Source: Gemmatimonadales bacterium
GTDB taxonomy: Bacteria; Gemmatimonadota; Gemmatimonadetes; Gemmatimonadales; GWC2-71-9
Assembly (NCBI GenBank): GCA_050733075.1
Contig: JBOHSD010000014.1
Span: forward strand, 13-64,012
DNA length: 64,000 nucleotides
Reading direction: 5' to 3'
Within the stretch, counting starts at the first letter, position 1. Every line of letters starts with the position of its first letter. The position numbers and the translations under genes were made by a program. The notes beneath the pieces were generated by a model. The model was not told the origin of the DNA and made no database searches. It saw nothing but the letters and a program-made list of their open reading frames with translations. Positions 1 through 53,632 of the stretch are shown here, piece by piece.

Positions 1-50
1 AACCGTAAACGGGGGGGATGGCCCGTTTACCGTTTACCGTTCACAGTTCA
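1..50. repeat. Heptamer-array hairpin element (GTGAACG family), left arm cut by the window edge
   Basis: GTAAACG at 5-11 faces four tandem 7-mers (CCGTTTA CCGTTTA CCGTTCA CAGTTCA) at 23-50. The array ends 7 nt before the ATG at 58. Confidence 0.7.
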
Positions 51-57
51 CGCAGTT

Positions 58-9101: not shown

Positions 9102-11609
9102 TTAGCCTACCACCAGATTCAGCAACCGATTCGGCACATACACCACCTTCCGAACCTCCTTCCCCTCCGTAAACCTCCGCACCGCGGAATCCTTCAGAGC
9201 AGCGGCCACGACCGTTTCCTCGTCGGCTCCGCGGGGCACGGTGACCTTCGATCGGGTCTTCCCGTTGACCTGCACCGCTATTTCCACGGTCTCTTCTACC
9301 GTGAGCCGCTCGTCCCAGGTGGGCCATCGCGCGTTGAAGATCGAGGAGTCGTGGCCCAGGCGCTCCCAGTTCTCCTCCGCAAAGTGGGGCGCGAAGGGGG
9401 CCAGCATGACGATCAGGTCCTCCACAATCTCGCGGCTGGCCACGTTCTCGGCGCGGATGGTGTTGACGAACTCCATGAGGGCCGCGATCGAGGTGTTGTA
9501 GCGCAGCTCCTCGAGGCCTTCCGTCACCTTCTTCACGGTCTGGTGCCGCTTGATGTCGACGAGTCGGGAGTCAGGAGTCGGGAGTCGGGAACGTCCGCCG
9601 TTGTCGCTGGCGGCCGTCTCGGTGACCAGGTTCCAGACTTTGTCCAGGAAGCGACGCGGCCCGCTGATCCCCTCGTCCCTGAAGTCGCCGCCCTCCTGGA
9701 ACGGGCCCAGGAACATGAGATACATGCGGAACGTGTCCGCGCCCCAGCGCGCGATGTACTCGTCCGGAATCACCACGTTGCCCCGCGACTTGGACATCTT
9801 GGCCCCGTCCTTCACGATGAGGCCGTGGGCCCGGAATTTCCGGAACGGCTCGTCGAAGTGAAGGTGACCGAGGCCGTGGAGCACCATCGTGATGAATCGC
9901 GAGTACAGCAGGTGCAGCACGGCGTGCTCGTTGCCGCCGATGTAGGTGGTCACCGGCAGCCATTTCCGGGTGCGCGCCGGGTCGAACGGCCGGTCGTCGA
10001 AGTCGGTGCTGGGATACCGTAGGAAGTACCAGGACGAGTCGAGAAACGTGTCGCTCACGTCGGTCTCGCGCCGGCTGCGCCTGCCGCAGATGGGACACGG
10101 GGTGTAGTACCACTCCTCGTGCCGGGCCAGCGGCGACACGCCGGTGTCGTCGGGCTGGAAGTCGTCGATCAACGGGAGCAGGACCGGCAGGTCCTTCTCG
10201 GGCACCGGGACCGCGCCGTGCTCGTCGCAATAGATGATGGGGATGGCAGGCCCCCAGTAGCGCTGGCGGGAGATGCACCAGTCGTGCAGCCGGTAGTTGA
10301 CGATGGCCTTGCCGGCGCCACGCTCGGCGAGCCAGGTGGTGATGGCGCGCTTGGCCTCGGGGACGGTGAGGCCGTCGAACTGGCCGGAGTTGACCAGGAC
10401 GCCGTTCTCGATGTCGACGTATGCCTCGGTAAGCGGAGTTTCGGCCCCTTCGCTGCGCTCAGGGTGACATACGACGCGGACGATCGGCAGGCCGAACTGC
10501 CGGGCGAATTCGAAGTCGCGCTCGTCGTGCCCCGGCACCGCCATGATGGAACCAGTGCCGTACTCCATCAGCACGTAATCCGCGATCCAGACCGGGATCG
10601 GCTTGCCAGTGGCCGGATTAATGGCGTACCCACCAGTGAACACGCCAGTCTTCTCGCGTTCACCGACTTTGCGGGAAACCAGGTCCTTCGCGGCAACGGA
10701 GCGACGGTAGGCATCTACCTCGGCCTTGCGGTCGGGAGTGGTGAAGGCGTCCACCAGCGGGTGCTCGGGAGCGAGCACCATGAACGTCGCCCCGAAAATG
10801 GTATCCGGGCGAGTCGTGAATACCCTGATCTCTTCCACCCTTCCCGTCTTTCCCGCCCTTCCCGCCTTTCCCGCAAACACGATCTCGGCGCCCTCGGAGC
10901 GACCCAGCCAATTCCGCTGGGCCAGCGTGGTGCTCTCGGACCAGTCCATCTTGGTCTTGTCGTCGAGGTCGGCCAGCAGCCGGTCGGCGTAGTCCGTGAT
11001 CCGGAAGAACCACTGCTCCAGCGTCCTCTGCTCCACCACCGAGCCGCAGCGCTCGCACCGCCCATCGATGACCTGCTCGTTGGCCAGCACCGTCTGATCC
11101 TTGGGGCACCAGTTGACCGCGGCCGCCTTCCGGTATGCCTTCCCTGCCTTCAGGAGTTGCAGAAAGAGCCACTGGGTCCACTTGTAGTACGCCGGATCGG
11201 TGGTGGAGAGCTCATGGCGCCAGTCGAACATGCCGCCGATACTTCGGAGCTGACGCCGGAAGTTGACGATATTGCGCGGGATCAACTCGGCCGGGTTGAC
11301 GCCGAGCTTGATTGCGTAGTTCTCGCTGTGAATGCCGAACGCATCGAAGCCGATCGGCTCGAACACGTCGTAGCCTTGAAGACGCTTGAAGCGACCGTAG
11401 ACGTCGCTGCCGGTGAAGGCGAACATGTTCCCCACGTGCAGCCCTTCGGCCGACGGGTAGGGGAACATCATCAGGTTGTAAAAGGGCCGTGCGGCCCGGT
11501 CGAGATCGGGCTCGTTGGTATGCCGCTCCGCCCAGCGCGACTGCCACTTGGCTTCGACCAGATCAGGACGGTAGGGCAGCACGTCGGTTGGTGTGGGATT
11601 CTGCTTCAC
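9102..11609 (-). CDS. leuS: Leucyl-tRNA synthetase
   Basis: FPYPSAEGLHVGN (HIGH region), VFTTRPDT, and KMSKSRGNV (KMSKS). Likely start is the GTG at 11609, just before YRPDLVEAKWQ. The ORF is open up to 11774. Confidence 0.95.
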   Translation of the reverse strand: MKQNPTPTDVLPYRPDLVEAKWQSRWAERHTNEPDLDRAARPFYNLMMFPYPSAEGLHVGNMFAFTGSDVYGRFKRLQGYDVFEPIGFDAFGIHSENYAIKLGVNPAELIPRNIVNFRRQLRSIGGMFDWRHELSTTDPAYYKWTQWLFLQLLKAGKAYRKAAAVNWCPKDQTVLANEQVIDGRCERCGSVVEQRTLEQWFFRITDYADRLLADLDDKTKMDWSESTTLAQRNWLGRSEGAEIVFAGKAGRAGKTGRVEEIRVFTTRPDTIFGATFMVLAPEHPLVDAFTTPDRKAEVDAYRRSVAAKDLVSRKVGEREKTGVFTGGYAINPATGKPIPVWIADYVLMEYGTGSIMAVPGHDERDFEFARQFGLPIVRVVCHPERSEGAETPLTEAYVDIENGVLVNSGQFDGLTVPEAKRAITTWLAERGAGKAIVNYRLHDWCISRQRYWGPAIPIIYCDEHGAVPVPEKDLPVLLPLIDDFQPDDTGVSPLARHEEWYYTPCPICGRRSRRETDVSDTFLDSSWYFLRYPSTDFDDRPFDPARTRKWLPVTTYIGGNEHAVLHLLYSRFITMVLHGLGHLHFDEPFRKFRAHGLIVKDGAKMSKSRGNVVIPDEYIARWGADTFRMYLMFLGPFQEGGDFRDEGISGPRRFLDKVWNLVTETAASDNGGRSRLPTPDSRLVDIKRHQTVKKVTEGLEELRYNTSIAALMEFVNTIRAENVASREIVEDLIVMLAPFAPHFAEENWERLGHDSSIFNARWPTWDERLTVEETVEIAVQVNGKTRSKVTVPRGADEETVVAAALKDSAVRRFTEGKEVRKVVYVPNRLLNLVVG
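9561..9590. repeat. GAGTCGG-family heptamer array inside leuS
   Basis: GAGTCGG GAGTCAG GAGTCGG GAGTCGG GA on the plus strand. On the coding strand it reads in frame as [10 protein letters not shown]. Confidence 0.85.
10445..10468. repeat. Half copy of the GTCACCCTGAG REP-like element inside leuS
   Basis: The coding strand reads GTCACCCTGAGCGCAGCGAAGGGG, translated CHPERSEG. It sits in a length-variable LeuS segment after HDERDFEFARQFGLPIV. Confidence 0.6.
10839..10874. repeat. Four tandem 9-nt repeats inside leuS
   Basis: CCTTCCCGT CTTTCCCGC CCTTCCCGC CTTTCCCGC encodes AGKAGRAGKTGR just before the conserved VFTTRPDT. Confidence 0.8.
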
Positions 11610-11811
11610 TCGCGTCTCGGTGCTCTTCCAGCGCTGGTTGGTCCCGCCCCCGGCCAGGCGCGGTTCCTCGAAGTGGGCGGCCTCGTAGAGAAGCCGTAAA
11701 TCTATTGCCGCTGCGGTGTTAGTGGTACCGGACCGGACCGGTTGACCCGCCGGTCCAACGGCCCGACCGTCCACCCGTCAGCGGGCCCCCCTCTTGCAAG
11801 GCTACGGCTCC

Positions 11812-31267: not shown

Positions 31268-31408
31268 GGGAGTCGGAAGTCTGGGGTGGAGAGTCGAGAG
31301 ACTACAGTCGAGAGTCGAAAGTCGAGAGTCGAAAGTCGAAGGTCTAAGATAATCTCGGGGGCCGGCCTGAGAGTCCGGTCGAGACTCCCGACTCCTGACT
31401 CCCGACTA
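31268..31408. repeat. Inverted heptamer-array element (GAGTCGG family) filling the serC-serA gap
   Basis: Left arm: 7-nt periodic GTCGA at 31307, 31314, 31321, 31328, 31335 (plus 31293). Right arm: GACTC at 31383, 31390, 31397 and GACTA at 31404. The serA TAG (31406-31408) is part of the last unit. Confidence 0.85.
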
Positions 31409-32632: not shown

Positions 32633-32653
32633 TTGGTCTCCTGGAACGCTATT

Positions 32654-32768
32654 GGGAGAGTCGGGAGCTGGGAGCTGGATGTTGTAGGCCAGCAGACTTT
32701 CGACTGCGGACTCCTGACGAAGAGTCCTGACTTCCTACCCCCGACTCCCGACTCCCGACTCCCGACTA
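32654..32768. repeat. Inverted heptamer-array element (GAGTCGG family) filling the serA-DUF1015 gap
   Basis: Left arm GGGAGAGTCGGGAGCTGGGAGCTGG (32654-32678). Right arm GACTC at 32743, 32750, 32757 and GACTA at 32764. The TAG of the DUF1015 gene (32766-32768) is part of the last unit. Confidence 0.85.
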
Positions 32769-33992
32769 TTCTAACAGATGCACAAACAACCCGCTCCTGA
32801 GCTTGGGCTCGAACCAGGTGCTCTTGGGCGGCATGACGGCGTCGGCGTCGGCTACCGCCATAAGCTGCTCGAGAGTCGTCGGATACAACGAAAACGCAAT
32901 CGCCATCTCCCCCGACCTGACCCGCCGCTCCAGCTCGGCGGTGCCGCGAATCCCACCCACAAAGTCGAGGCGCTGGTCGGTGCGCGGATCGCCGATGCCC
33001 AGGATGGGACCGAGTACCCGGTCCTGGAGCAGCGAGACATCCAGTGACCCGATGGGGTCCCGCCGATCGATGCTCTGTTCGTCAAACTCCACCCGGTACC
33101 AGGCGTCCGCCAGGTACGCGCAGAACGTGCCGGGACGCGGTGGCCGGGGATGATCGGTGGTGGAGATGCGGCCGACGTCGCGCAAAGCGTGAAGCACCTC
33201 GGCGGCCGACCTTCCGCCCAGATCGCGTACCATCCGGTTGTAGGGCAAGATGGTGAGCTGGTCGGCCGGAAACAGCACCGCGAGAAACCAGTTGTACTCC
33301 TCGTCTCCCTGGTGCCTGGGGTTGGCGGCTCGGCGCTCCTTCCCCGCACGCCAGGCGCTGGCCGAGCGGTGATGGCCGTCGGCGACGTAGGCGTGAGGCA
33401 CGCCCAGGAAGGCGTCCACCCAGGGCGCCGGATCTGGTATGCGCCAGACCGTGTGGCGAACCCCGTCCGGGGCCGTGAAATCGTAGAGGGGCTCGGTGCC
33501 CAGCACCGGCTCGGAGAGCACGTCGATCTCGCCGCGGCTACGATAGGTGAGGAACACCGGCTCGGCATGAGCACCCAGAGCCAGTACATGGCGGGTGCGG
33601 TCGTCCTCCTTGTCGGGGCGGGTCTTCTCGTGCTTTCGGATCACATTCTGCTCGTAATCATCGATGTGGACGCAGCCTACCAGGCCGGTCTGCGCCCTTC
33701 CGCCCATGATCTGACGATACAGATAAAGGGCCGGGGCTCCCTCCCGAACGAGAACGCCGCCAGCCAGAAACTCCCAGAGCGCCTCGCGCGCCCGGGCGTA
33801 GATGCGGGGATCGTGGGGGTCGATCTCTGCGGGGAGGTCGATATCCGAGCGGCCGACATGCAGGAAGCTGTGCGGATTTCCCCGCGCCAGCTCCACCGCC
33901 TCAGCCCGGTTCACCACATCGTAGGGGACTGCCGCAACTCTGGCCGCCACCTCCGGGGCCGGCCGGACCGCGTCAAAAGGATGAAGTCGCAC
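32766..33992 (-). CDS. DUF1015-family protein
   Basis: MRLHPFDAVRP...VAAVPYDVV...HEKTRPDKEDDR...YVADGHHRSASA. Commonly linked to serA/serC. Confidence 0.85.
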   Translation of the reverse strand: MRLHPFDAVRPAPEVAARVAAVPYDVVNRAEAVELARGNPHSFLHVGRSDIDLPAEIDPHDPRIYARAREALWEFLAGGVLVREGAPALYLYRQIMGGRAQTGLVGCVHIDDYEQNVIRKHEKTRPDKEDDRTRHVLALGAHAEPVFLTYRSRGEIDVLSEPVLGTEPLYDFTAPDGVRHTVWRIPDPAPWVDAFLGVPHAYVADGHHRSASAWRAGKERRAANPRHQGDEEYNWFLAVLFPADQLTILPYNRMVRDLGGRSAAEVLHALRDVGRISTTDHPRPPRPGTFCAYLADAWYRVEFDEQSIDRRDPIGSLDVSLLQDRVLGPILGIGDPRTDQRLDFVGGIRGTAELERRVRSGEMAIAFSLYPTTLEQLMAVADADAVMPPKSTWFEPKLRSGLFVHLLE

Positions 33993-42542: not shown

Positions 42543-43160
42543 ATGTCGATTCACAAGCTTCTTCAACTGACCTCCGGTCTGGTCGCCGCGGCAATCGTAG
42601 CCAGCGCCGCCGCGCCCCCTGCCGCCGCACAGGGCGGGGTGGAGCTGACTCCCTGGGCCGGGGTATACATTCCCACCAGCAATTCAGTGAGTGCCCTCGG
42701 TGATGACATCTCCCGTGACGTCAGCGTTGCCGGTGGCGCCCGTCTCAGCTTCTGGGGCACCGGTGCCCTCGGCTTCGAGGTGACCGGCGGCTACGCTCCG
42801 GCGAAGATCGGAGACGAGACCATCAACGAGACCGGCAACACCGATCTCCTGCTCGCCAGCGGGCGTCTGATGCTTGCGCTGTCACCCGTCAGCAACCCCG
42901 TCGGCTTCTATATCGCCGGAGGCCCTGCGCTGCTGGCACGCGGGAGCAATCCCTTCGACGACGACCGGAGCAGCACCGATATCGGCGGAGTGCTCGGACT
43001 CGGCTTCCGCTTCGGCGGCGGCGATGATAATCGAGTGGGCTTCCGGCTCGATATCGAGGATTACCTTTACAACGGTGACTTCGGTGGCGGCGACGAGTTC
43101 CAGAACGACCTGGTCGCCTCGCTGGGCGTCTCGATCGCCCTCGGAGGCAGCCCCGACTGA
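42543..43160 (+). CDS. Outer-membrane beta-barrel protein (paralogue of 41657..42301)
   Basis: Signal ASAAAPPAAAQG. Shared motifs with the upstream OMP include GVYIPT, RL.F and LGVSIALG. Confidence 0.75.
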   Translation: MSIHKLLQLTSGLVAAAIVASAAAPPAAAQGGVELTPWAGVYIPTSNSVSALGDDISRDVSVAGGARLSFWGTGALGFEVTGGYAPAKIGDETINETGNTDLLLASGRLMLALSPVSNPVGFYIAGGPALLARGSNPFDDDRSSTDIGGVLGLGFRFGGGDDNRVGFRLDIEDYLYNGDFGGGDEFQNDLVASLGVSIALGGSPD

Positions 43161-43188
43161 CCTCCGGAAGCTCAACCGCAGGACTCGA

Positions 43189-43224
43189 GGGCGTGCAGCC
43201 GAACCTAGCTTCGGTTGTGCGCCC
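43189..43224 (+). terminator. Long hairpin downstream of the second OMP gene (possible terminator)
   Basis: 15-bp stem GGGCGUGCAGCCGAA / UUCGGUUGUGCGCCC with three G-U pairs and a 6-nt loop. The downstream U-tract is weak. Confidence 0.45.
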
Positions 43225-43526
43225 TTCCCGCATTGAGGCCAGGGCAGTCCGGGTGGTTTCCTCTCACGCCAGGCGACAATGAAGGGACATGAAGGTGGGT
43301 GGAACGGGCCCATTGGGGGCCCGTTCCCGGCGAGATGAGATAAGAAGGGGAATTTGAGGGAGACAAACAGCAAAAGCGAAGATGGATAGCTCGTCCGGCC
43401 GTTGAGCAGGGGACTCGAGGCTTGTTCGGACGTCTCGCGGTTCGCCCTCCACCCACGCTCTCACTGGGCCAAGTATAGACTCGCGAAAAGGAGCCGCTGT
43501 GCGGTAGATCACAACCAAGAGTCGCC

Positions 43527-44207
43527 TCAGGGCGCCGGTGCTACCGCGCGCAGAGGCAAATGCGGCTCGAGTACATGGTCTTCCAAGATCTGCCGCAGCG
43601 TTATAGGTCGAACTCCTCTCGAACGCCAGGCAGCGATCAGCCGCTCACCCTCTTCCGGGTTGATGGCCCGCACAGCGTCGGTCACCAGATACAGCTCCGC
43701 CTTCGGCAGCGCGCGCATGAGGCCTTCCATGGCGTACTTGTCACAGAAATCGGTGGCCACGCCGTAGAGCACCACAGCCTCTGGCTCCAGCGCTCGAAGC
43801 AGCGCCGGCACGTTGGCGTTGGTGAACACGTCCAACGCCCGCTTGTGCAACAGGAAATCGCCCCGGTGGGCGAGGACCTGCTGGGCCAGCGCGCCCGGAT
43901 CGTGAAGCTCGGGGCCGATCACCAGCGGATTGAGCAGCTCGGTCTCGGGAATCTTGAGCTGTCCCGGTGTGCCCCGCATGCAGTGCGGCGGGAAAGTAGT
44001 GCTCCAGTCGGGGGTATCGCTGATCTCCGGATCGGAGAGCTCGTGATTGTCAGCCGAGGCGACGATCGGGATCCGGTTGGCGTGGGCAAAGTCGGTGAGC
44101 GCCTTGACGGCGGGGATGATCTCTTCGCTGCCGGGCACATAGAGCTTTCCGTCCGACTTCATGAAGTCATAGGACGTGTCCACGTCCCAGAAAATCAGTT
44201 TCGTCAT
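43527..44207 (-). CDS. pncA: Isochorismatase-family hydrolase, probable nicotinamidase
   Basis: LIFWDVDTSYDF...PIVASADNH...FPPHCMRGTPG...VVLYGVATDFC. Lies next to pncB. ATG at 44207. Confidence 0.75.
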   Translation of the reverse strand: MTKLIFWDVDTSYDFMKSDGKLYVPGSEEIIPAVKALTDFAHANRIPIVASADNHELSDPEISDTPDWSTTFPPHCMRGTPGQLKIPETELLNPLVIGPELHDPGALAQQVLAHRGDFLLHKRALDVFTNANVPALLRALEPEAVVLYGVATDFCDKYAMEGLMRALPKAELYLVTDAVRAINPEEGERLIAAWRSRGVRPITLRQILEDHVLEPHLPLRAVAPAP

Positions 44208-44223
44208 GCGGTCTCCGAAAAAC

Positions 44224-44371
44224 CGTGAACCGTGAACAGTAAACGGTGAACGGCAAGGGGTGAACCCGGCCACCCGTTCACCGTTTACCGTTCACCGTTT
44301 ACCGTTCACCGTTTACCGTTCACCGTTCACCGTTCACCGTTCACCGTTCACCGTTCACCGTTCACCGTTTA
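44224..44371. repeat. Inverted heptamer-array element (GTGAACG family) between pncB and pncA
   Basis: Right arm 44274-44371 is 14 uninterrupted units (10 CCGTTCA, 4 CCGTTTA). Left arm 44224-44253 is CGTGAAC CGTGAAC AGTAAAC GGTGAAC, plus GTGAACC at 44260-44266. Confidence 0.9.
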
Positions 44372-45427
44372 ATCTACCTTTTCCAACCTCGGGTTGGGCC
44401 GGTATTCCCGTCCCACCTTGGCACATGGCCTTCCTTCGCGCCGCACCACGTCGGCCGTGAAATCGAACCGTCCCTGGAACAGCGAGGACCCCACGCCGTA
44501 CCCGTCCACCGGCACTTTGTCCCGCTCGAATTCCCGGATCTTGTCAACCGTGAACCCACCGGAGACGATGATCCTCACGCTGCGGAAGCCGTCGCCATCC
44601 AGCGCGCGGCGGACATTCCAGACCAGCTGCGGGTTGACCCCATTGGGCTTGAAGTACCCCATCCTATCCCAGAGTGAGCGGTCCACCAGCGTCTCGCTGG
44701 TGTCGAGACGTACGCCGTAGAGCCGGTCTCCCAGCGCGTGAGCCACCTCGAGCGAGGTGCGCACGCAATCGTTCTCGAAGTCGACCAGGCTGATCAGCCT
44801 CACTTCCGGCCGTATGTGCTGGGCGAACTTCCGGGTGGCGAGCACCGTGTCACCCCCGTAGGCAGCGATGAGCGCGTGCGGTACCGTCCCCACACCCTCG
44901 CTCCCCCACCACGAGGCCTGCGCGTCGGTCGAGACCCCGATGGCACCGGCCACGTGTGCGGCGTATCCATCGCCGGTCTGGACCAGCCAGTGATCGTGAC
45001 GGGCCGGAAAGAACATGATCTCCTTGGGCGCGGCTGCTTCGACCACCCTCCGAGTGTTCGTCGCCACGCGGGTTCGCCGGGCGAGCACTCCCAGGTAGAG
45101 CGTCTCCAGATGGGCAAAGGCGTCATAAGGCCCCTCGACAAGAAGCGCCGTCTCCCAGGGCTCGACCTCGTCACCATCATGCAGCGCGTGGACCTCGAGC
45201 TCGGGCCACTCGATGGCACATAGCTTCAGGATGGCGAGCGCCTCATCCACCCCGCCGAGGAATGCGTGGGTCTTGCCGAACACCTGCATGGTTACCCGGG
45301 GGCGATACCGATCGGCTAACAGGATCTCGCGCGCCCGTACGAAGTACTTGTCGGAGTAATAGCCGGCCCGCATCTTCGCCACCGGCAAGTTGAAGATTTC
45401 GGGGTCCAGCCGCTGGCGAGCGGGCAT
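44369..45427 (-). CDS. pncB: Nicotinate phosphoribosyltransferase
   Basis: 352-aa ORF with YYSDKYFVRAREIL and LDTSETLVD-type motifs of the NAPRTase family. The TAA stop is embedded in the first heptamer. Confidence 0.85.
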   Translation of the reverse strand: MPARQRLDPEIFNLPVAKMRAGYYSDKYFVRAREILLADRYRPRVTMQVFGKTHAFLGGVDEALAILKLCAIEWPELEVHALHDGDEVEPWETALLVEGPYDAFAHLETLYLGVLARRTRVATNTRRVVEAAAPKEIMFFPARHDHWLVQTGDGYAAHVAGAIGVSTDAQASWWGSEGVGTVPHALIAAYGGDTVLATRKFAQHIRPEVRLISLVDFENDCVRTSLEVAHALGDRLYGVRLDTSETLVDRSLWDRMGYFKPNGVNPQLVWNVRRALDGDGFRSVRIIVSGGFTVDKIREFERDKVPVDGYGVGSSLFQGRFDFTADVVRREGRPCAKVGREYRPNPRLEKVD

Positions 45428-45428
45428 T

Positions 45429-46100
45429 TCAGCAGGGCCCGGCGTCGAACCGTTGGGCTTTCAAGGCCGCCAGAGCCGTCCGGAGCCGCCGCGCATCACC
45501 CGACGTGGGGTGACGGTCTATCAGCCTGCGCAGCTCGGCCATGGCGCGTCCCGGATCGCTCAGGTGCTGCTCGTAAACCTGGACCAGGGCCAGCCCGATC
45601 CGGAAATCGTCCCGGCTCGAGAGCGGCCCCGCCATCCGCAGATTATCGAGCTCGAGTGCCGCCGTCTCGGAATGGCCCAATGACTCCGCCAGCAGCTTCG
45701 CCCGCCTGAGGGTGGCCTCAACCCGCTCGGCCTGGTTCTGCGCTCGCTCCGCGTAGGCCTCGGCGGCGGCCGCGAGATGACCTCGCGCCACCAGGGTCTC
45801 GATGGCGGAAAAGCCGCCGCCCCTGCGCACCAGCCCGGCATTGCTCACGAGGTGAAAGAATCCGTCGATCACGGGCTCGAGCACGCCGTAGAGCAACCCG
45901 ACGACTAGGCCATACACCGCCCATAGCGCGCCTACCAGCTGGAGGGCTCGGGGCTCGGCTCCGGTCGCCGCCAGAATGACCGCGATGACCGTACCCAGGA
46001 GCGCGAGCGCTCCCACAACCAACCGAACCAGGCCGAACGGCTCCTCGGTGGATCGATTGGCTCGGTCGGTGGCGGAGCGGAGCGGGGAGTAAGAGGCCAA
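45429..46100 (-). CDS. Membrane protein with TPR-like helical C-terminal domain, hypothetical
   Basis: Two TM helices, then Ala/Leu/Arg-rich helical repeats. TTG start. Ends 1 nt before the pncB start. Confidence 0.55.
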   Translation of the reverse strand: MASYSPLRSATDRANRSTEEPFGLVRLVVGALALLGTVIAVILAATGAEPRALQLVGALWAVYGLVVGLLYGVLEPVIDGFFHLVSNAGLVRRGGGFSAIETLVARGHLAAAAEAYAERAQNQAERVEATLRRAKLLAESLGHSETAALELDNLRMAGPLSSRDDFRIGLALVQVYEQHLSDPGRAMAELRRLIDRHPTSGDARRLRTALAALKAQRFDAGPC

Positions 46101-46117
46101 GGCAAAAAGTTACTCGG

Positions 46118-46146
46118 TTGACTTTCGCTTCGCGACGGGCCTAAAT
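46118..46146 (+). promoter_or_regulatory. Candidate sigma70-type promoter for the asparaginase-family gene
   Basis: TTGACT (46118-46123), a 17-nt spacer, and CTAAAT (46141-46146). GGAGG lies 8 nt before the ATG at 46194. Confidence 0.3.
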
Positions 46147-46193
46147 CCCCCGCAGCGTGAACGGCGGTTCCCTCTGCCATTGGAGGCTTTCCT

Positions 46194-47219
46194 ATGTCAC
46201 GGCCGGTCTCCCGCCGCACCTTTTTGGGAGCGAGCGGTTTCGCGGCGGCAAGCGTTGCGTTGCCATCGATCCCTCCGGCGGTCCTCCGCGGGAGCGCGAG
46301 TCGACCGGCAGCGGTGAGCTCGGCCAACGGTCTCCCCGCGGTCAACCGCGCCATGGAGCTGATGCTTGGCGGCACCGACACGCTCGATGCGGCCGTGGAA
46401 GGCGTCAAGATCCAGGAGCTCGACCCGGCTGACAATTCGGTTGGCTACGGCGGCCTTCCCAACGAGGATGGCGTGGTTCAGCTGGATGCGTCGTGCATGC
46501 ACGGTCCGACTCGACGGGCAGGAGCGGTGGCGGCGCTGGAGGGGATCAAGACGCCGAGCGAGGTGGCGCGGCTGGTGCTCAAGTATACCGATCACATCAT
46601 GCTGGTGGGCGAAGGCGCCAAACGTTTCGCGCTCTCGTACGGCTTCAAGGACGAAGATCTGCTGACTCCCGAGTCGCGGCAGCTGTGGCTCACCTGGCGC
46701 GCCAACCGGGGGCCGGAGGACGACTGGCTCGACGTCCCCGAGGACGAGCCCATGGTGGCCCGGCCCACCGGCACGATCAATCTGAACCTGGTGAACTCGC
46801 GGGGCGAGGTCTCCTCCGTCACTACGACCAGCGGGCTGGCCTGGAAGATCCCGGGTCGCGCGGGGGACTCACCCATTGTGGGCGCGGGCCAGTATACCGA
46901 TAACGATATCGGGGCCGCCGGGTCCACCGGTCGGGGCGAGGCGAACATCCTGGCCTGCGGCGGGTTCTTGACCGTCGAGAACCTGCGGCGGGGACTCAAG
47001 GCGACCGATGCGTGCCTCGAGACGCTGAAGCGGGTGGTGCGGATCACTCCGCCCCGTCTGCTCCGGAATGGCCGCCCGACGTTCAATCTGAACTTTTATG
47101 CGGTGAGCAAGCAGGGCGACTTCGGGGCCGCGTCGCTCTATCCGGCTCGCTACGCGGCGCACGACGGCAAGGACGGAGCCCTGCGCGACACGGCCTACCT
47201 CTATCAGAGGCGGGCGTGA
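46194..47219 (+). CDS. Ntn-hydrolase of the asparaginase 2 family (isoaspartyl peptidase / glycosylasparaginase-like), Tat signal
   Basis: MSRPVSRRTFLGASGFAAAS is a twin-arginine signal. GTINLNLV holds the nucleophile Thr. GAAGSTGRGEANI. Confidence 0.85.
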   Translation: MSRPVSRRTFLGASGFAAASVALPSIPPAVLRGSASRPAAVSSANGLPAVNRAMELMLGGTDTLDAAVEGVKIQELDPADNSVGYGGLPNEDGVVQLDASCMHGPTRRAGAVAALEGIKTPSEVARLVLKYTDHIMLVGEGAKRFALSYGFKDEDLLTPESRQLWLTWRANRGPEDDWLDVPEDEPMVARPTGTINLNLVNSRGEVSSVTTTSGLAWKIPGRAGDSPIVGAGQYTDNDIGAAGSTGRGEANILACGGFLTVENLRRGLKATDACLETLKRVVRITPPRLLRNGRPTFNLNFYAVSKQGDFGAASLYPARYAAHDGKDGALRDTAYLYQRRA

Positions 47220-48361
47220 CGGGGCGGGTCGCTCTGCTCCTTCCCGTACTGCTCTGGGCTGCGCCGCTGGTGGCGCAGGAAGCCGAGGAGCGGGAGCGGA
47301 GCACGCCCTGGCGCACCAGTTACTTCCCCTATCTTACGGGCGGCACCAACGATGGACCGGTGCTCGCTTTCCGGGTCCATCACTGGCAACCCGCGCAGTA
47401 CGAAGACCGGGTCACCGCCAATGGGGCACTCACCGCCGACGCGGGCATCACCCATCGCGGCAGCCGCCACGCCTACGTCAAGTTCCGGGCCCCCCAGCTG
47501 CTGAACGGATGGCGGATCAACCTGCTCGGCGCCGCGGCGCGGGAGGCGCGCTTCGGCTACTTCGGGCTGGGAAACGATACCGAGTACAACGGAGATCTCG
47601 TCACCAGGACGCAGCCGTTCCTATACCGGGTCCGGCGAACCCGTTACACCGGGCAGGTCGAGGTCACCAAGCTGATCGGGGGGCCGCTGCAACTCGCCAT
47701 TCTGGGAAACCTGGAGAAGGCGCGGTTCACCTCGCTGCCCGGCCCCTCGTTGTTCCGCTCGGACTTCTCCACCGAGCTGGACCAGACCGATGCCTCGGGT
47801 CGACTGGCTTTCGTGTACGACACCCGGGATAACGAGTTCAACACCCATCAAGGACTTTTGCTCGAGGGTGGCGCGCAGATCGGCAGCGGGGGGAGTGGCT
47901 ATACCCGGCTGTATGCCATACTCCGAGGCTATGTCACTCCGCGCGAGGGCACCGTAGTGGCGACGCGGCTGGTCGCGTCGGGGATGGGGGGTGGCCCGAC
48001 GCTGGATGCGCGCTTCACCATTCCGGGTTGGGAAAAAGAGATCCCGGTGCTGGGGGGTCAGTACTCCCATCGCAGCTTCGATACCGGGCGCTTCGCCGGC
48101 CGCCACCTGATCTTTGGAAATCTAGAGGTCCGCCACGACCTTCTGGCGTTCGGCGATCTCGGCGCCATTACACTGCTGGGATTCGTCGATGCGGGGCGGG
48201 TGTTCGAGCAGGAGTCTTTCGGGCTGACCACCGATGGCGTGAAGGTGGGCGGGGGCGGCGGAGTGGCGCTCCGGATTCTCCGCTCGACCATATTCACCTT
48301 CAACTTTGCCGGCGGCCCGGACGGCTTCAACTATTCGGTGGGAACCGGGTGGATGTTCTAG
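47216..48361 (+). CDS. BamA/TamA-family outer-membrane protein (surface-antigen D15 beta-barrel only)
   Basis: The GTG at 47216 overlaps the upstream TGA (GTGA). Signal LLLPVLLWAAPLVAQ. C-terminal ...FNYSVGTGWMF aromatic terminus. Confidence 0.75.
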   Translation: MTGRVALLLPVLLWAAPLVAQEAEERERSTPWRTSYFPYLTGGTNDGPVLAFRVHHWQPAQYEDRVTANGALTADAGITHRGSRHAYVKFRAPQLLNGWRINLLGAAAREARFGYFGLGNDTEYNGDLVTRTQPFLYRVRRTRYTGQVEVTKLIGGPLQLAILGNLEKARFTSLPGPSLFRSDFSTELDQTDASGRLAFVYDTRDNEFNTHQGLLLEGGAQIGSGGSGYTRLYAILRGYVTPREGTVVATRLVASGMGGGPTLDARFTIPGWEKEIPVLGGQYSHRSFDTGRFAGRHLIFGNLEVRHDLLAFGDLGAITLLGFVDAGRVFEQESFGLTTDGVKVGGGGGVALRILRSTIFTFNFAGGPDGFNYSVGTGWMF

Positions 48362-48363
48362 AG

Positions 48364-48398
48364 GCGGGGAAGCGGGGGAGCGGGGAAGCGGGGAAGCG
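48364..48398. repeat. Tandem octamer array (GCGGGGAA x4) starting 2 nt after the TAG stop
   Basis: GCGGGGAA GCGGGGGA GCGGGGAA GCGGGGAA GCG, between convergent genes. No inverted partner seen. Confidence 0.8.
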
Positions 48399-48424
48399 AT
48401 GCTGTCGGAGGACGGGGTCCGCCC

Positions 48425-48961
48425 TCAAGCCACCTTCGCAACCGGGAACCCTGCGGTTTCCAGAACCTCGCGCAGCGTCGTCTCGCCGCGGTCGCGGGCA
48501 TACCACTGGCGGACCTTGGGATAGAGCTCGGTCTTAGGCATGGTGCCGAGGCTGGCCATGACCCAGGCCTGCAGCTCGGCCGGACGCGGCCCCCAGTGGC
48601 CGATCTCCTGGAACGACTCGTCCAGCGCGATCACGATGGGAATAGAGCGCGAGCCGTTGGTAAGGTACTGGTCCATCACCTCCGGATACGCGTCGCGCAT
48701 GATCACCCGCAGCTCGAGCCCGGGCACCAGGTCGGCCAGCCGGGCGACGACCGGCACGGTGTTTGAAGCGTCGCCGCACCAGTCTTCCGCGATGACCAGG
48801 AGCTTACGTTTCACCCCGGGAGGAACGGCTGCCGGCGCCCAGCCGGGAATTCGGGCCAGATTGTAGATCGCCTGCCAGAGCCCGCAGTGCTCAGCCTTGC
48901 ATACGGCGACGAACGCCTCGAAGGTGAGCGCGCTCTCCCACAATTTCCTGAAGTCCAGCAT
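48425..48961 (-). CDS. Thioredoxin-fold family protein
   Basis: LLVIAEDWCGDASNTVPVVARLA...IPIVIALD. ATG at 48961. Confidence 0.75.
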   Translation of the reverse strand: MLDFRKLWESALTFEAFVAVCKAEHCGLWQAIYNLARIPGWAPAAVPPGVKRKLLVIAEDWCGDASNTVPVVARLADLVPGLELRVIMRDAYPEVMDQYLTNGSRSIPIVIALDESFQEIGHWGPRPAELQAWVMASLGTMPKTELYPKVRQWYARDRGETTLREVLETAGFPVAKVA

Positions 48962-49045
48962 GTCTTTCTCCGGTAATAGGCGGCGGCGTTCCTCAAACAC
49001 CAGGTTACCCCGGAAGGTTCCCACCGCGCCGCCGCGCCGCCCACC

Positions 49046-50188: not shown

Positions 50189-50237
50189 TCCTACCCCGTT
50201 GGAAAAGTCCCCGAACATACTCGGGAGAGTGGGAGGG

Positions 50238-50396
50238 GTGAAGGCCGTGAACGGTGAACGGTAAACGGTTAACGGGTACATGATTGCGGGAGAATGGTGA
50301 ACCGGCCCATCCCTTCCCCCCGTTCACCGTTCACCGTTCACCGTTCACCGTTTACCGTTCACCGTTCACCGTTTACCGTTCACCGTTCACCGTTCA
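50238..50396. repeat. Inverted heptamer-array element (GTGAACG family) in the divergent SDH/TetR intergenic region
   Basis: Left arm: GTGAACG GTGAACG GTAAACG GTTAACG (50247-50274), plus GTGAAGG at 50238 and GGTGAACC at 50297. Right arm 50320-50396 is 11 uninterrupted units (9 CCGTTCA, 2 CCGTTTA). Confidence 0.9.
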
Positions 50397-50432
50397 CGCC
50401 CTTCATCTCTCACCTCTTACATTCATCATCAC

Positions 50433-51035
50433 ATGTCGCCCCCTGGCCCTTCCAATCCCCGCCGCAACGGCACCGCCACCCGCCAGCGGCTCCTGCGCGC
50501 GGCGGCGGAGCTCTACACCACCGTGGGTTACCGGGCGACCACTACCCCGGAGCTCGCCGCCCGCGCCGGAGTGGCGGAGGGGACGATATACCGGCACTTC
50601 AAGGGCAAGGAGAGCCTGCTGAACGAGGTCTACCGCGATGCGCAGCAGCGGGGGGCGGAGCTGGTCCGCGAGGTGGACACCTACAAGGCGCTACCACCGC
50701 GTGAGCGATTGCTCGGCGTTGCCAGGCGCCTCGTGGACGAGGCGAAGACCGACCCCGCGAGGATGCGGATGCTGCTGCAGAGCCGGGAGGAGCGTCTTCT
50801 GGACGAGCAGAGCCGGGAAGCAGGACGCGAATTTCAGGAGGCGCTACAGCAGATCGTTGCCGGCGGCAAGGCGGACGGGAAAGTGCGTTCCGGCCCGGCC
50901 GACCTCTGGGCCTCGATCTGGCTGGCGCTGGTAGGGTTTGCGGCAGAGCGGGTGAGCGCAGGTGAGTGGACCCCGGAGCATCCGCAGGTGGCGCTGACGC
51001 TGGAGGCGGCCTGGGATGCGATCTCGGCGAGATGA
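50433..51035 (+). CDS. TetR-family transcriptional regulator
   Basis: RQRLLRAAAELYTTVGYRATTTPELAARAGVAEGTIYRHFKGKESLL. Confidence 0.9.
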   Translation: MSPPGPSNPRRNGTATRQRLLRAAAELYTTVGYRATTTPELAARAGVAEGTIYRHFKGKESLLNEVYRDAQQRGAELVREVDTYKALPPRERLLGVARRLVDEAKTDPARMRMLLQSREERLLDEQSREAGREFQEALQQIVAGGKADGKVRSGPADLWASIWLALVGFAAERVSAGEWTPEHPQVALTLEAAWDAISAR

Positions 51036-51051
51036 GGAGTTTTTCTCCCGC

Positions 51052-51810
51052 TCACCGCTCCCGTCTCCCCTCAAAAAACGTCAGCTGCCTCGGCCGGGCC
51101 GGCAGATTCGACCACGCGGGCCGGCGGGGACGCCCTGGGCCCAGGGGCCGGACCTCGAGCCTATCGTTCACGAAGTATCCCACCGAATCACTCCCCCAGC
51201 GCACCGGGTCACGCGCGCCGCGGGCGAGGAGACCGGGCGCTCCGGTATCCGCCACCACGCACAGGTCGCCACCCGTCTCACACGGCACCGCCCGGGCGAA
51301 CACCGGGTCGCCCAGCAGCACCGCCAGGCTCGACTCCGCGCGCGCGCGTTCGCCGGCCGGCACCGCCCGGGCATCCCGGGCCGCGGGCGGCGAGCCGACC
51401 CGATAAAGGCCGTTAGCCGTCGAGACGATCACCGATTGTCCACCCCGCTCCCAGCCGACTCGCAGGGGCTGTCCAGCGCCCCTGGGCAGCCGGAGCTCGC
51501 GTTCCCCACCGCTCAGCAGGCTCATGACCCAGACGGTGGCAGGGGTAGAGTCGTTGACCGATGCACTGCGGAAGAACGCCAACCTGGCGCCGTCGGGCGA
51601 GAGGGCCGGCCTCAGCTCGGCGATGTTGCTGAAGGTGACCCGGACCGGGGAGCCCCCCTGGGGACGCGCAGCATAGAGATCACCATTGAGACCGCCACCA
51701 ACGAAGACGGCATATGGGTCTCGCCCGACCTCCATCTGGCCGCGGAGCGGAGGGAGCGTGGGATCGCAGGCGGTCAGAAGTAAGAGGTGAGAAGTGAGAA
51801 GGGTTGTCAC
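51052..51810 (-). CDS. TolB-like beta-propeller (PD40 repeat) protein, possibly a lipoprotein
   Basis: LRPALSPDGARLAFF is a PD40 motif. Putative GTG start at 51810 gives VTTLLTSHLLLLTAC, a lipobox-like signal encoded by the heptamer array. Alternative ATG at 51735 has no signal. Confidence 0.55.
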   Translation of the reverse strand: MTTLLTSHLLLLTACDPTLPPLRGQMEVGRDPYAVFVGGGLNGDLYAARPQGGSPVRVTFSNIAELRPALSPDGARLAFFRSASVNDSTPATVWVMSLLSGGERELRLPRGAGQPLRVGWERGGQSVIVSTANGLYRVGSPPAARDARAVPAGERARAESSLAVLLGDPVFARAVPCETGGDLCVVADTGAPGLLARGARDPVRWGSDSVGYFVNDRLEVRPLGPGRPRRPAWSNLPARPRQLTFFEGRRER

Positions 51811-51933
51811 CCTGAGGGCGCGGCCGCGCCCGAGGGGCCGGAGCTTGAATTGTGCTTCGGCCCCCTCGCCTGCGCTGCGCTTCGGCTCAGGGTGACACCG
51901 CATTCCCCTCACTTCTTACTTCTCACCTCTCAC
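51773..51933. repeat. Composite element: GTGAGAA-family heptamer arms flanking a GTCACCCTGAG...CTCAGGGTGAC REP-like palindrome
   Basis: Left arm GTCAGAA GTAAGAG GTGAGAA GTGAGAA (51773-51800). Palindrome arms at 51806-51816 and 51886-51896 enclose the internal palindrome GGCGCGGCCGCGCC and the hairpin CGAGGGGCCG/CGGCCCCCTCG. Right arm CCCTCAC TTCTTAC TTCTCAC CTCTCAC (51906-51933). Confidence 0.85.
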
Positions 51934-53511
51934 TGTGCTTTTGAGCAGCCACCAGCCGTGGGGATCGACCTGGATGCTGGCGGGCTTCCGCCTGATTCCC
52001 TCGAGCACCTTGCGGGTCTTCCTTCCCTCGATCGCCACCCGCACCGGTTTTCCATCAACCAGTAGCTCGAGAGCCGGGATTCGATAGGCGCCCCACTCCG
52101 GCTTTTGGATCTGCTCGATCTCGAGCGTCAGCTTCCCTCCCTGGTGACGCCAGTGGATCTCCAGCACCGGATAGCCCGGCTGAGTCAGCGCCTGCCGGAA
52201 GTACCACTCGAGATCCTGCCCCGCGGTCTGGGACATTACCCGGGCGAAATCGCCGGAGAGCGCGGTACTGTCCTTATAGGCCGAGTAGTAGCGCCGCAGC
52301 CCGCCGAAGAAGGTGGAGTCTCCCAGGATACCACGGAGCTGATGCAGTACCCACGCACCTTTCTCGTAGCTGTTGCTGTTGAGCAGCCCGAGCAGATCGG
52401 ACGTCGCAGTATCTACCACCGGCCGCTCGCTGGCGGGGGAGTCGAGAATCTCGGCTGCCGCTCCCGCCATTCTGGAGCGGAAGGCGCTGTCGCCCTCGGC
52501 GTGAGCGGTCCAGAGGGCGGAGAGATAGGTGGCGAACCCTTCCGACAGCCAGAGATGCGGCCAGTCCAACGGGGTGACCGAGTTGCCGAACCACTGATGC
52601 CCGGTCTCGTGGGCTACCAGCGCCTCGTTCAGCTTCTTGCTCCGGTAGAGCTTCTCGTCGTAAAAGATCGCAGTGGCGTTCTCCATGCCGCCGAACCTGG
52701 TGCTCGACTCGACGTGGGCCAGGCTGGGATAGGGAAATGGAGCGATCAGCCGGCTGAAGTACTCCAGCATCTCGCCGGCCCGCCGGAAGGCCCTGGTAAC
52801 AGCGTAGGCCGAGTCGAGGGGGTAGGTCCAGACGGTGAGCGGCACGCACTTGATCGCGCAGGCAGCGTCCGGCAGAGCGGTACGGGCGAACTTGCCGACG
52901 CCCGCCACCATGGTGTATACCGGCACCGGAGTGTCCAGGCGGTAGTGCCACATCGCGCTGCCGTAGGGCAGCGTGTCGATTTTCTCCAGCACGCCGTTAG
53001 CGATCACCTGGTGCTCGATAGGCACCTCGACGTGAAATGCGACAGTCGCCTTGTCGCTGGGGTGATCGCGGGAAGGGAGCCAGAGGTGAGCCCGGTTGGG
53101 CCAGTTGTCGGCGAACAGGGTGCGCTGGCCGTATTGGTTGTTGCGAATGATCAGCCCATCGCGGGTGAAGCCGCGGTAGCGCACCCGGGTGCTGATCGAA
53201 TCGCCCGGCTGCTTTTGATGCGGGATAGCAATGTAGTCCTCCGACCGGCCATACATGGTGCGGGAGAGCCGGGTGTTGGGTTTACCGTCCACCAGAACCC
53301 GGATCACCCGCATGGCGGAGTCGAGCTGCATCGTCACCGGCTCGGCGGAGCGGAGCCGCCATGTGGTCTGCACTTCGCCTAGGACGTGGGTGCCGGTGTC
53401 GCTGGGCACGAGGGTGATGTCGTAGTGCAGCGCGTCATGCACCGCGCCGACCGAGTCGGCCCAGGCGGCGAGGGGAGACTGGGATTGCAACAGGAGAATC
53501 AGGGGGAGCAT
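51916..53511 (-). CDS. M1-family zinc aminopeptidase (aminopeptidase N-like)
   Basis: GGMENAT, HETGHQWFGNSV (HExxH), and WLSEGFATY. The last codons (VRGEK) and the TAA stop lie inside the heptamer array. Confidence 0.9.
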   Translation of the reverse strand: MLPLILLLQSQSPLAAWADSVGAVHDALHYDITLVPSDTGTHVLGEVQTTWRLRSAEPVTMQLDSAMRVIRVLVDGKPNTRLSRTMYGRSEDYIAIPHQKQPGDSISTRVRYRGFTRDGLIIRNNQYGQRTLFADNWPNRAHLWLPSRDHPSDKATVAFHVEVPIEHQVIANGVLEKIDTLPYGSAMWHYRLDTPVPVYTMVAGVGKFARTALPDAACAIKCVPLTVWTYPLDSAYAVTRAFRRAGEMLEYFSRLIAPFPYPSLAHVESSTRFGGMENATAIFYDEKLYRSKKLNEALVAHETGHQWFGNSVTPLDWPHLWLSEGFATYLSALWTAHAEGDSAFRSRMAGAAAEILDSPASERPVVDTATSDLLGLLNSNSYEKGAWVLHQLRGILGDSTFFGGLRRYYSAYKDSTALSGDFARVMSQTAGQDLEWYFRQALTQPGYPVLEIHWRHQGGKLTLEIEQIQKPEWGAYRIPALELLVDGKPVRVAIEGRKTRKVLEGIRRKPASIQVDPHGWWLLKSTVRGEK

Positions 53512-53519
53512 AGCAAAGC

Positions 53520-53632
53520 GTAAACGGTAAACGGTGAACGGTGAACGGTGAATGGAAGGCTGCTGTACCCCGGCACGTGAACGGGAGGTGAGCGGCCCGT
53601 TTACCGTTTACCATTCACCGTTCACGGTTTCA
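53520..53632. repeat. Inverted heptamer-array element (GTGAACG family) between the dienelactone hydrolase and M1 peptidase genes
   Basis: Left arm: GTAAACG x2, GTGAACG x2, GTGAATG (53520-53554), plus an extra GTGAACG at 53577. Right arm: CCGTTTA x2, CCATTCA, CCGTTCA, CGGTTTCA (53597-53632). The upstream TGA at 53630-53632 abuts the array. Confidence 0.9.

Follow-up and report, generated by a model that had tools for sequence, protein, structure and literature searches.

Why should a long array of tandem heptamers, closed by an array of its own complement, lie exactly on the stop codon of one gene and occupy the space in front of the next? The question is raised by the junction between a pncB-like and a pncA-like gene, both of NAD salvage, in a soil Gemmatimonadales bacterium (assembly GCA_050733075.1, contig JBOHSD010000014.1), within a stretch of 64,000 nucleotides (nt) that we call the window and from whose first letter its positions are counted. 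An earlier note, made from the letters of the window and a list of open reading frames (ORFs), had drawn attention to this element. We identify it as an inverted heptanucleotide microsatellite that evolves rapidly; this Gemmatimonadales genome has many like it, and the short tandemly repeated repetitive (STRR) sequences of cyanobacteria and the inverted GGGAATC pairs of Xanthomonas belong to the same kind. It lies on the stop codon within a pair of genes that, judging from their relatives, were ancestrally translationally coupled. The explanation that we favor overall, with a probability of roughly 0.55, is a labile inverted heptamer microsatellite that was seeded on the stop codon and has a hairpin effect at the 3′ end.

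Both genes that flank the array lie on the minus strand. The upstream gene (44369..45427, 352 amino acids; from the ORF list) is NaPRTase-like and belongs to the nicotinate/quinolinate phosphoribosyltransferase family (Pfam QRPTase_N/C), and the downstream gene (43527..44207, 226 amino acids) belongs to the isochorismatase/nicotinamidase family (Pfam PF00857). The long arm (44274-44371) consists of 14 heptamers in register without interruption, a result on which direct reading, Tandem Repeats Finder (period 7, 13.7 copies, 93% matches, score 171) and our own period-7 scan agree. In the notation of the plus strand, ten of the units are CCGTTCA (units 1, 3, 5 and 7-13) and four are CCGTTTA (units 2, 4, 6 and 14), and the minus strand reads TAAACGG (TGAACGG)7 and then alternates between TAAACGG and TGAACGG. 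The TAA stop of the pncB-like ORF (44369-44371) forms the opening triplet of the first unit, in the context GTA GAT TAA-ACGG. On the minus strand, (TGAACGG)n is followed by a 20-nt spacer, CAAGGGGTGAACCCGGCCAC (44254..44273), which includes one extra degenerate GGTGAAC unit and lacks conservation between copies of the family. The complementary short arm comes next (44223..44253; 44221-44251 and 4.4 copies according to Tandem Repeats Finder); it is of the CCGTTCA/CCGTTTA type on the minus strand and holds about 4.5 imperfect units, written on the plus strand as CCGTGAA twice, CAGTAAA, CGGTGAA and a final CGG. The second arm is adjoined by UUUUU (44218..44222) on the minus-strand transcript, and a GGAG Shine-Dalgarno sequence (44213-16) and the ATG of the downstream gene (44205-07) complete the junction (44205..44216). 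In the opposite orientation the array is open in all frames, and the plus-strand ORF 44260..44460 reads RSPFTVHRLPFTV... through it. The unit count, the anchored TAA and the open complementary orientation are as the earlier note had described them, and the second arm, which it had counted as four units able to pair with the first, is slightly longer.

Folding of the intergenic transcript, a check that the note had proposed, predicts a strong hairpin. The minus-strand transcript folds at -90.1 kcal/mol (z = -7.4 against shuffled sequences), with a stem of about 35 bp and a loop of 20 nt; about five loop-proximal units of the long arm are paired with the short arm, and about nine GGUGAAC units beside the stop codon are left single-stranded. 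For the plus strand the predicted values are -68 kcal/mol as RNA (z = -6.2) and -38 kcal/mol as DNA, and the sense-strand fold of this copy is better than the antisense fold by about 21 kcal/mol.

The repeat family is real, and only the exact copy number at pncB-pncA rests on one assembly. An independent Logan assembly of one sequencing run reproduces the stop codon and the first 3.5 units and then breaks inside the array, as a k-mer assembler would be expected to do; the count of 14 units comes from the other assembly. Both facts could be read in favor of an artefact of short-read assembly in a metagenome-assembled genome (MAG). However, the stop and the first units recur in the Logan assembly, species-representative genomes have CCGTTYA-type arrays in more than 120 stretches, some of them in contigs of 0.6-1.7 Mb, arrays of the family lie in contigs of 0.25-1.7 Mb of other MAGs, and arrays stand at orthologous junctions in dozens of independent metagenomes. 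An artefact is therefore extremely improbable. Among 120 array-bearing stretches that were fetched, 43 are from Gemmatimonadales/Gemmatimonadota.

Evidence on the origin of the element comes from 80 orthologous pncB loci recovered from metagenomes, at 80-90% protein identity (related loci are referred to by L numbers). The length of the PncB C-terminus is conserved in all 80, and the FWDVD motif of the pncA orthologues was found 3′ of pncB in approximately 35 related loci. Where the array is missing, the pncA start overlaps the pncB stop (ATGA or GTGA) or follows after a gap of less than 25 nt in many orthologues; stop and start overlap or lie a few nucleotides apart in L124, L142, L149, L150 and L157, for example. 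Where an array is present at the pncB stop, its unit differs from locus to locus: GTGAGAA/GAGGTGA in L123, L125, L126 and L127, GTGAGCG in L130 and L140/141, GTGAGAC in L151 and L152/179, and TTGACGA in L178. L154 carries a direct array only, of GTGAAnn units, and the GTG start of its pncA lies inside the array, supplied by the penultimate unit. Two-unit stages are present in L126 and L135, and L171 has a single TGAGCGG on the GTGA start/stop overlap at which L140 has (TGAGCGG)4. On the pncB tree, the nearest relative of the window, L123, carries a different unit, and array states are interleaved with array-less sisters, which implies at least seven gains or replacements. Comparison of array-bearing and array-less orthologues revealed no duplications flanking the pncB-pncA arrays.

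The junction is a hot spot. Arrays occupy 8 of 27 non-identical pncB-pncA loci, whereas of 262 other junctions on the same contigs only 3 have one (odds ratio 36, Fisher p = 2.8e-7), and most of the 20 arrays found in 381 kb of these contigs are at pncB-pncA. In L156-L202, pncA is not downstream and the neighbor of pncB is convergent; a GC hairpin, GTAGGGGCGCAGCATGCTGCGCCCCTAC, lies 1-3 nt after the pncB stop and has no U-tract. Because these array-less convergent junctions carry a plain GC hairpin at that place, a hairpin directly after the stop can be taken as the normal gene-end signal of the clade, and the group's native style of terminator appears to be this plain GC hairpin.

A second pair of junctions behaves in the same manner. 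In the window, an inverted element of the GAGTCGG/GGGAGCT family (32654..32769) lies between a DUF1015 gene and a serA-like gene, and one of the GAGTCGG/AAGTCGA family (31270..31408) between the serA-like gene and an aminotransferase gene; in each of them the TAG stop, of DUF1015 and serA respectively, is the first triplet of a TAGTCGG unit. Both junctions also carry heptamer arrays in relatives. At DUF1015-serA an array is present in 6 of 7 loci: L204-L207 have (C/G/T)AGTCGC arrays at the DUF1015 stop, and L208, which lacks an array, has a single TAGTCGC there. L203 uses TAGGGTC at both serA junctions and the window uses GAGTCGG at both, which indicates that units are common to neighboring junctions of one genome and different between genomes. 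The single-unit loci (L208 and L171) and the two-unit loci (L126 and L135) can be read as seed stages.

The gene cluster around these junctions, OpuAC/permease, DUF1015, serA-like, class-V aminotransferase and amidohydrolase, is conserved in L203-L208 and in the window (30161-33992), and the gaps between its genes range from -4 to 200 nt, chiefly through heptamer arrays. One gap of 167 nt in L207 holds three array families (GGAGCTG, GAGTCGC and AATAGCC). The SerA homologues (P0003, P0017, P0018, P0023, P0026 and others) differ by putative C-terminal tails rich in K, Q and R, of 0-25 residues after a conserved ...AELSELDGR, which may be genuine or may stem from read-through into repeat DNA.

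We surveyed the family in the window and 43 Gemmatimonadales loci, with genes called by a codon-bias model trained on the window. The arrays agree with a heptanucleotide simple sequence repeat (SSR) in that at least three head-to-tail copies, beyond chance, are present and in that the unit is dispersed at many, mainly intergenic, loci on several contigs per MAG. According to the earlier note, anything that enters an element from either side meets the stop-rich orientation first. Among 41 inverted elements, 36 present the stop-bearing arm first on both strands and none presents it second, with stops in both arms of one element and in neither arm of four (binomial p = 3e-11); the proposition therefore holds in Gemmatimonadales. 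The orientation rule is common to several unrelated units, namely GTGAACG, GTGAGAA, GTGAAAG, TAGTCGT and GTAGGTC. Outside Gemmatimonadales the bias is weaker (27 to 10), and single arrays number 129 against 42 inverted ones.

CCGTTYA arrays of up to about 190 nt were seen in MAGs of many phyla and of one archaeon (L013); examples from beyond Gemmatimonadales are L011 (Halomonas), L049 and L055 (Caldilineales) and L081 (Cellvibrionaceae). In a Saprospiraceae MAG (L036, contig CAYMLN010000060.1), positions 889-1052 hold a 164-nt array of AAACCCT, the plant-type telomere unit, which could be a contamination or an unrelated heptamer family.

Proximity to gene ends was found in the surveyed loci, where the median distance of an array is 7 nt to a stop codon, with many overlapping, and 33 nt to a start codon. 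Among 67 distinct stop-adjacent arrays, 20 have exactly the ORF stop as the opening triplet of their first unit, and in 15 the stop falls in the second to fourth unit; the peak at zero offset (20/67) has p = 5e-19 against a uniform offset. The anchoring on which the earlier note had based its idea of a stop-embedded architecture is thus real, but the architecture is not universal: the unit of the GAGTCGG/GGGAGCT family in the window has no stop, only the terminal TAGTCGG having one, and the copy at 50245-50399 is not stop-anchored. Of 77 elements, only 4 fall inside a gene. Both flanks were assigned for 32 inverted elements, of which 21 lie at tandem, 9 at convergent and 2 at divergent junctions, compared with 195, 35 and 34 in the background; the enrichment at convergent junctions is only mild (p = 0.035), and the depletion at divergent junctions (2/32 versus 13%) is not significant.

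Arms typically have 3-5 units, the 14-unit arm at pncB being among the longest. At least three stop-bearing units are present in 87 of 96 arms, so that stops occur in all three frames, as the note had argued from the unit length of seven. TGA or TAA is retained in 94% of 423 units, and the only common change within the triplet is the stop-preserving G to A (42 of the 96 arms), whereas stop-destroying changes are rare (A to G at position 3 in three arms, T to C at position 1 in four). However, positions outside the stop triplet are equally invariant, with G to A at position 7 in three arms and C to T at position 5 in four. The substitution spectrum is therefore suggestive, and not diagnostic, of selection on stops. 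A G-T-R-A core is conserved among the units.

The other copies that the earlier note had listed in the window are all present, and there is one more inside leuS. Period 7 is specific in the window, with 14 arrays (543 nt) compared with 3 (58 nt) of period 6 and 1 (39 nt) of period 8, and the dominant units are GTGAACG at four loci and GAGTCGG at three. Ten ORFs flanking arrays were scanned against Pfam. Three inverted elements besides that at pncB-pncA have the GTGAACG unit. The copy at 1..51 is cut by the window start, and its right arm ends 7 nt before an ATG at 58. The copy at 50245..50399, with 4 + 11 units, lies between divergent genes for a saccharopine dehydrogenase (minus strand) and a TetR protein (plus strand); its hairpin fills most of the divergent promoter region, and it is the sole clear copy in the window without an adjoining gene end. 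The copy at 53515..53632 separates the genes of a DLH-family hydrolase and a peptidase M1, and the hydrolase stop (TGA, 53630-32) is one base out of phase with the array. The additional copy, a GAGTCGG array of 4.3 units (9561..9591, plus strand), runs in frame and in the open orientation inside leuS (9102..11774, minus strand, with HVGN and KMSKS motifs), where it encodes 11 residues (amino acids 727-737); the open orientation is therefore tolerated within an essential gene. The same gene carries a 9/18-nt repeat at 10838-10874 (GKAGRAGKTGR).

The element of the GTGAGAA/GTAAGAA family at 51772..51934 is a composite. Its arms overlap the ends of the plus-strand ORF 51016..51783 and of the minus-strand peptidase M1 gene, with the stops in the second and third units; the plus-strand ORF is weakly supported, having no Pfam match, and our gene caller preferred the minus-strand ORF 51052..51735. 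The loop between the arrays holds a nested non-heptamer palindrome of about 90 nt (51806-51896), GTCACCCTGAG...CTCAGGGTGAC, which can also be written as TGTCACCCTGAG ... CTCAGGGTGACA. The nested GTCACCCTGAG palindrome also lies in the GTGAGAA arrays at pncB-pncA of L123 (3596-3704) and L127 (approximately 1255). The palindrome at 51806-51896 may be a transposable element of the miniature inverted-repeat type (MITE) that landed in array loops, or the composite may be mobile as one unit.

How, then, might such an element arise and what might it do? In the explanation that we favor, the ancestral pncB-pncA junction would have been a tight, translationally coupled overlap (ATGA/GTGA) or a gap of less than 25 nt. 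An array would be born on the stop codon either when a stop-containing stretch of 7 nt is duplicated by slippage or when such a stretch is copied from another array through TGA/TAA microhomology. The only viable events would be those that spare both the first stop and the start downstream, and arrays that survive under this condition would start on stops and read in the stop sense. Slippage would then expand the array, and an intramolecular template switch would produce the complementary arm. Units would also be homogenized within a genome; this step, the weakest link of the proposal, is needed because few units dominate a genome. In the resulting mRNA, the pncB stop would be directly followed by about nine GGUGAAC units in single-stranded form and, after these, by a stem of about 35 bp. 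Most likely, the predicted stem would act at the 3′ end as a barrier resembling those of repetitive extragenic palindromes (REPs) and bacterial interspersed mosaic elements (BIMEs), or as a partial, leaky terminator. Translation of pncA, which has its own GGAG, would be uncoupled from that of pncB, and the strength of the effect would depend on the copy number.

A bolder version holds that the arrays are lineage-wide, evolvable operon insulators, nucleated on stops and kept at pncB-pncA and DUF1015-serA-serC, with copy number tuning the adjacent products. Nucleation would proceed by microhomology-guided copying from other arrays or by a dedicated factor that recognizes the G-T-R-A core. We consider this version doubtful. 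As a further idea, to which we attach no weight, the purine-rich arms could be Shine-Dalgarno mimics; GGTGA, GAGGTGA and GGGAG fit, whereas TTGACGA, TAGTCGC and TAGGGTC do not.

Several observations weigh against a stop-seeded microsatellite with a hairpin effect. Pure in situ seeding does not account for the dominance of a few units in a genome, such as that of GTGAACG and GAGTCGG in these 64 kb, and the copies between divergent starts (50245-50399) lack a stop from which they could have been seeded. Units at the array edges often deviate from the consensus, and the gene calls in the related loci, which come from our own codon-bias caller, are approximate. A U-tract is not a trait of the family: only 5 of 82 hairpin tails have at least five T in 10 nt (mean 2.6). 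Finally, the fold energies of the sense and antisense strands show no significant difference (16 versus 12 elements, Wilcoxon p = 0.13). This lack of a strand difference means that there is no signature of RNA-level selection across the family, and the elements may have a role at the DNA level or no role.

The last two points also speak for the most serious rival, namely that the arrays are a neutral or selfish by-product of mutation. Slippage and template switching would act wherever they are harmless, and hairpin, anchoring and orientation would be side effects of the 7-nt insertions that are tolerated. The patchy occurrence among orthologues, the rapid turnover of units and the microsatellite-like arm lengths, mostly of 3-5 units, are all consistent with this view, as is the argument that stop content alone dictates the tolerated sites (MacGregor, 2015; PMC4679880). 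However, the same junctions are struck recurrently while their neighbors are spared, both at pncB-pncA and at DUF1015-serA, and it is mainly this junction-specific recurrence that opposes an absence of function. Moreover, the arrays split operons that were ancestrally translationally coupled and for this reason should not be neutral, and the G-T-R-A core is conserved. We therefore regard a neutral origin as possible rather than probable. The idea raised by the earlier note amounts to a frame-independent stop barrier: the arrays would be selected because TGA or TAA in all frames, met from either side, insulates the neighboring genes from ribosomes that read through or shift frame. The strict order of the arms in Gemmatimonadales, the retention of stops in nearly all units, the excess of stop-preserving over stop-destroying changes and the coverage of three frames in most arms are what this idea would predict. 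Yet the triplet is no more invariant than positions 5 and 7, the stop-free units GAGTCGG/GGGAGCT and the GGGAATC of Xanthomonas share the purine-arm-first architecture, and the orientation bias falls to 27 to 10 outside Gemmatimonadales. In addition, the native stop already ends translation, and it is doubtful what would be gained from 14 more. Such a barrier is unlikely to be the explanation.

A non-autonomous mobile element of the MITE type, of the type of REP doublets forming hairpins (REPINs) or resembling palindrome-associated transposable elements (PATEs), that is, a palindromic unit copied by a transposase and targeted to stop codons, would account for the presence of an identical unit at many loci of one genome and across many species and phyla, for the fixed architecture and for the recurrence of the GTGAGAA array with its nested palindrome in the window, L123 and L127. 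We nevertheless rejected it as the main explanation, because no conserved core and no target duplications were found, and we hold it to be quite unlikely. Loops and spacers are not conserved between copies and arm lengths vary freely; the window copies share only the heptamer unit, with different loops and flanks, and a conserved, non-repetitive core of the REP/REPIN type was not found among them. Apart from the arrays themselves there was no sign of terminal inverted repeats, nor were target-site duplications seen, and neither the conserved interior nor, at pncB-pncA, the flanking duplications of a MITE were present. One orthologous site is occupied by different units in different loci, stages with a single unit or two units are found, only 21 stretches were matched in 2.9 million viral contigs, and for the counterpart in Xanthomonas no association with mobile elements was found (Rehm et al., 2015; PMC4692102). 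Still less can be said for a canonical Rho-independent terminator between pncB and pncA, which we consider very unlikely even though the strong predicted stem is directly followed by UUUUU. The terminator-like layout of U-run, GGAG and ATG that the earlier note had pointed out does exist at this junction, but it is peculiar to this copy, a U-tract being absent from 77 of 82 family tails, and the family as a set of intrinsic terminators was rejected on this ground. A stem of about 35 bp with a loop of 20 nt is far beyond terminator norms, and the site is within an operon-like pair that overlaps in relatives. A scan of 43000-55000 for consensus promoters and terminators did not call the element and found terminator-like sites at the level of chance (6 versus 6.5 expected), and Rfam covariance models gave no match at the gathering threshold in the whole window.

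Intergenic heptamer repeats have been known since approximately 1990 from the STRR sequences of cyanobacteria, with units such as CCCCAGT, TTGGTCA and CAACAGT. The earlier note, which knew of STRR, had taken the stop-anchored inverted architecture to be undescribed, and in this it was wrong: heptamer hairpins or the associated stop constraint are described for Xanthomonas (Rehm et al., 2015; PMC4692102), for STRR between hupS and hupL (PMC2670836) and for TAACTGA repeats (MacGregor, 2015; PMC4679880). The closest counterpart is the GGGAATC heptamer of Xanthomonas campestris and X. axonopodis, with approximately 185 loci per genome and 2-26, mostly 4, units (Rehm et al., 2015, PLoS One; PMC4692102). 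Between 70 and 75 pairs of arrays per genome are convergent, that is, inverted, and capable of forming stem-loops; 89-93% of arrays are intergenic, and they are nearer to the upstream ORF, at a mean of 28 nt (PMC4692102). The pairs mostly lie within 0-50 bp of the upstream stop or overlap it, the coding strand carrying the G-rich arm; they are rare between divergent genes, are not kept at the same genes in sister species and show no link to mobile elements (PMC4692102). The present family is alike in that its 41 inverted elements are convergent arrays of the same heptamer, capable of forming a stem-loop, and in its placement by or over the upstream stop. The two differ in that the Xanthomonas unit, which belongs to another phylum and contains no stop codon, has a G3 tract and forms G-quadruplexes, whereas GTGAACG/GTAAACG, without a GGG run, cannot. 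Exact in-phase stop anchoring and recurrence at the same junction across lineages are not reported for Xanthomonas (PMC4692102).

According to PMC2670836, STRR heptamer hairpins lie between hupS and hupL in several genera, including Nostoc and Anabaena. Roles in transcript stability, translational coupling or termination have been proposed for them, none of which is proven (PMC2670836; PMC4692102), and few STRR arrays in Nostoc are paired as inverted repeats (PMC4692102). Our elements share with STRR the 7-bp tandem units dispersed between genes, the capacity for hairpins and the recurrence at the same operon junction; in the strict sense they are not STRR, since the host is Gemmatimonadales and not a heterocystous cyanobacterium and the units are GTGAACG, GAGTCGG and GTGAGAA. 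The TAACTGA repeats of marine Beggiatoaceae, cyanobacteria and Bacteroidetes also have stops in every frame, which limit their overlap with gene ends and shape their distribution (MacGregor, 2015; PMC4679880). They likewise close three frames in one direction, are open in the other and have a patchy phylogenetic spread. However, TAACTGA repeats form 169 direct sets and one inverted set of 2-6 copies, are placed just upstream of start codons rather than on stops, and have no predicted secondary structure (PMC4679880).

REP, BIME and REPIN sequences resemble the present elements in being extragenic palindromes just after stops and between operon genes. In mRNA, the hairpins of REP and BIME sequences protect the upstream message and modulate the expression of neighboring genes. 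The sequences are abundant in enterobacteria (REP/BIME) and Pseudomonas (REPINs), often just after stops or between the genes of an operon (PMC3116915). A REP, however, is a conserved palindrome of approximately 35 nt and not a tandem array of short units, and it is mobilized by REP-associated tyrosine (RAYT) transposases. In the more general class of long SSRs of 5-11 nt, heptanucleotides are the most abundant in many prokaryotic genomes, with a sporadic taxonomic distribution, and polymerase slippage has been suggested as their cause (Mrazek et al., 2007, as summarized in PMC4679880). That class is a statistical one, and the summary in PMC4679880 mentions neither inverted pairs nor stop anchoring; Gemmatimonadota do not figure among the repeat-rich genomes of that class. 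Our literature search found no description of such repeats for Gemmatimonadota. Therefore, inverted heptamer hairpins by stops and the constraint of a stop in every frame are already known, and what is different here is the lineage, the units, the lack of G-quadruplex potential, the very strict orientation, the exact in-phase stop anchoring and the recurrence at the same junctions.

As of 2015, there was no detailed literature on heptameric repeats (PMC4692102). In practical terms, the arrays break short-read assemblies, and their open orientation could invite false ORFs or N-terminal extensions; the mechanical ORF 44260..44460 is one instance, and no case was confirmed in a called gene. If the insulator version were true, the arrays would correspond, at the post-transcriptional level, to contingency loci, and would do so in free-living soil bacteria. 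The uncultured Gemmatimonadales represent a very rich natural experiment, in which an overlap of stop and start, a single seed, two units, a direct array and an inverted hairpin can all be found among hundreds of orthologues of one junction in metagenomes. This comparative material makes it possible to test both the origin of the arrays, by stop-codon seeding or by insertion, and their function, through their recurrence at the same junctions.

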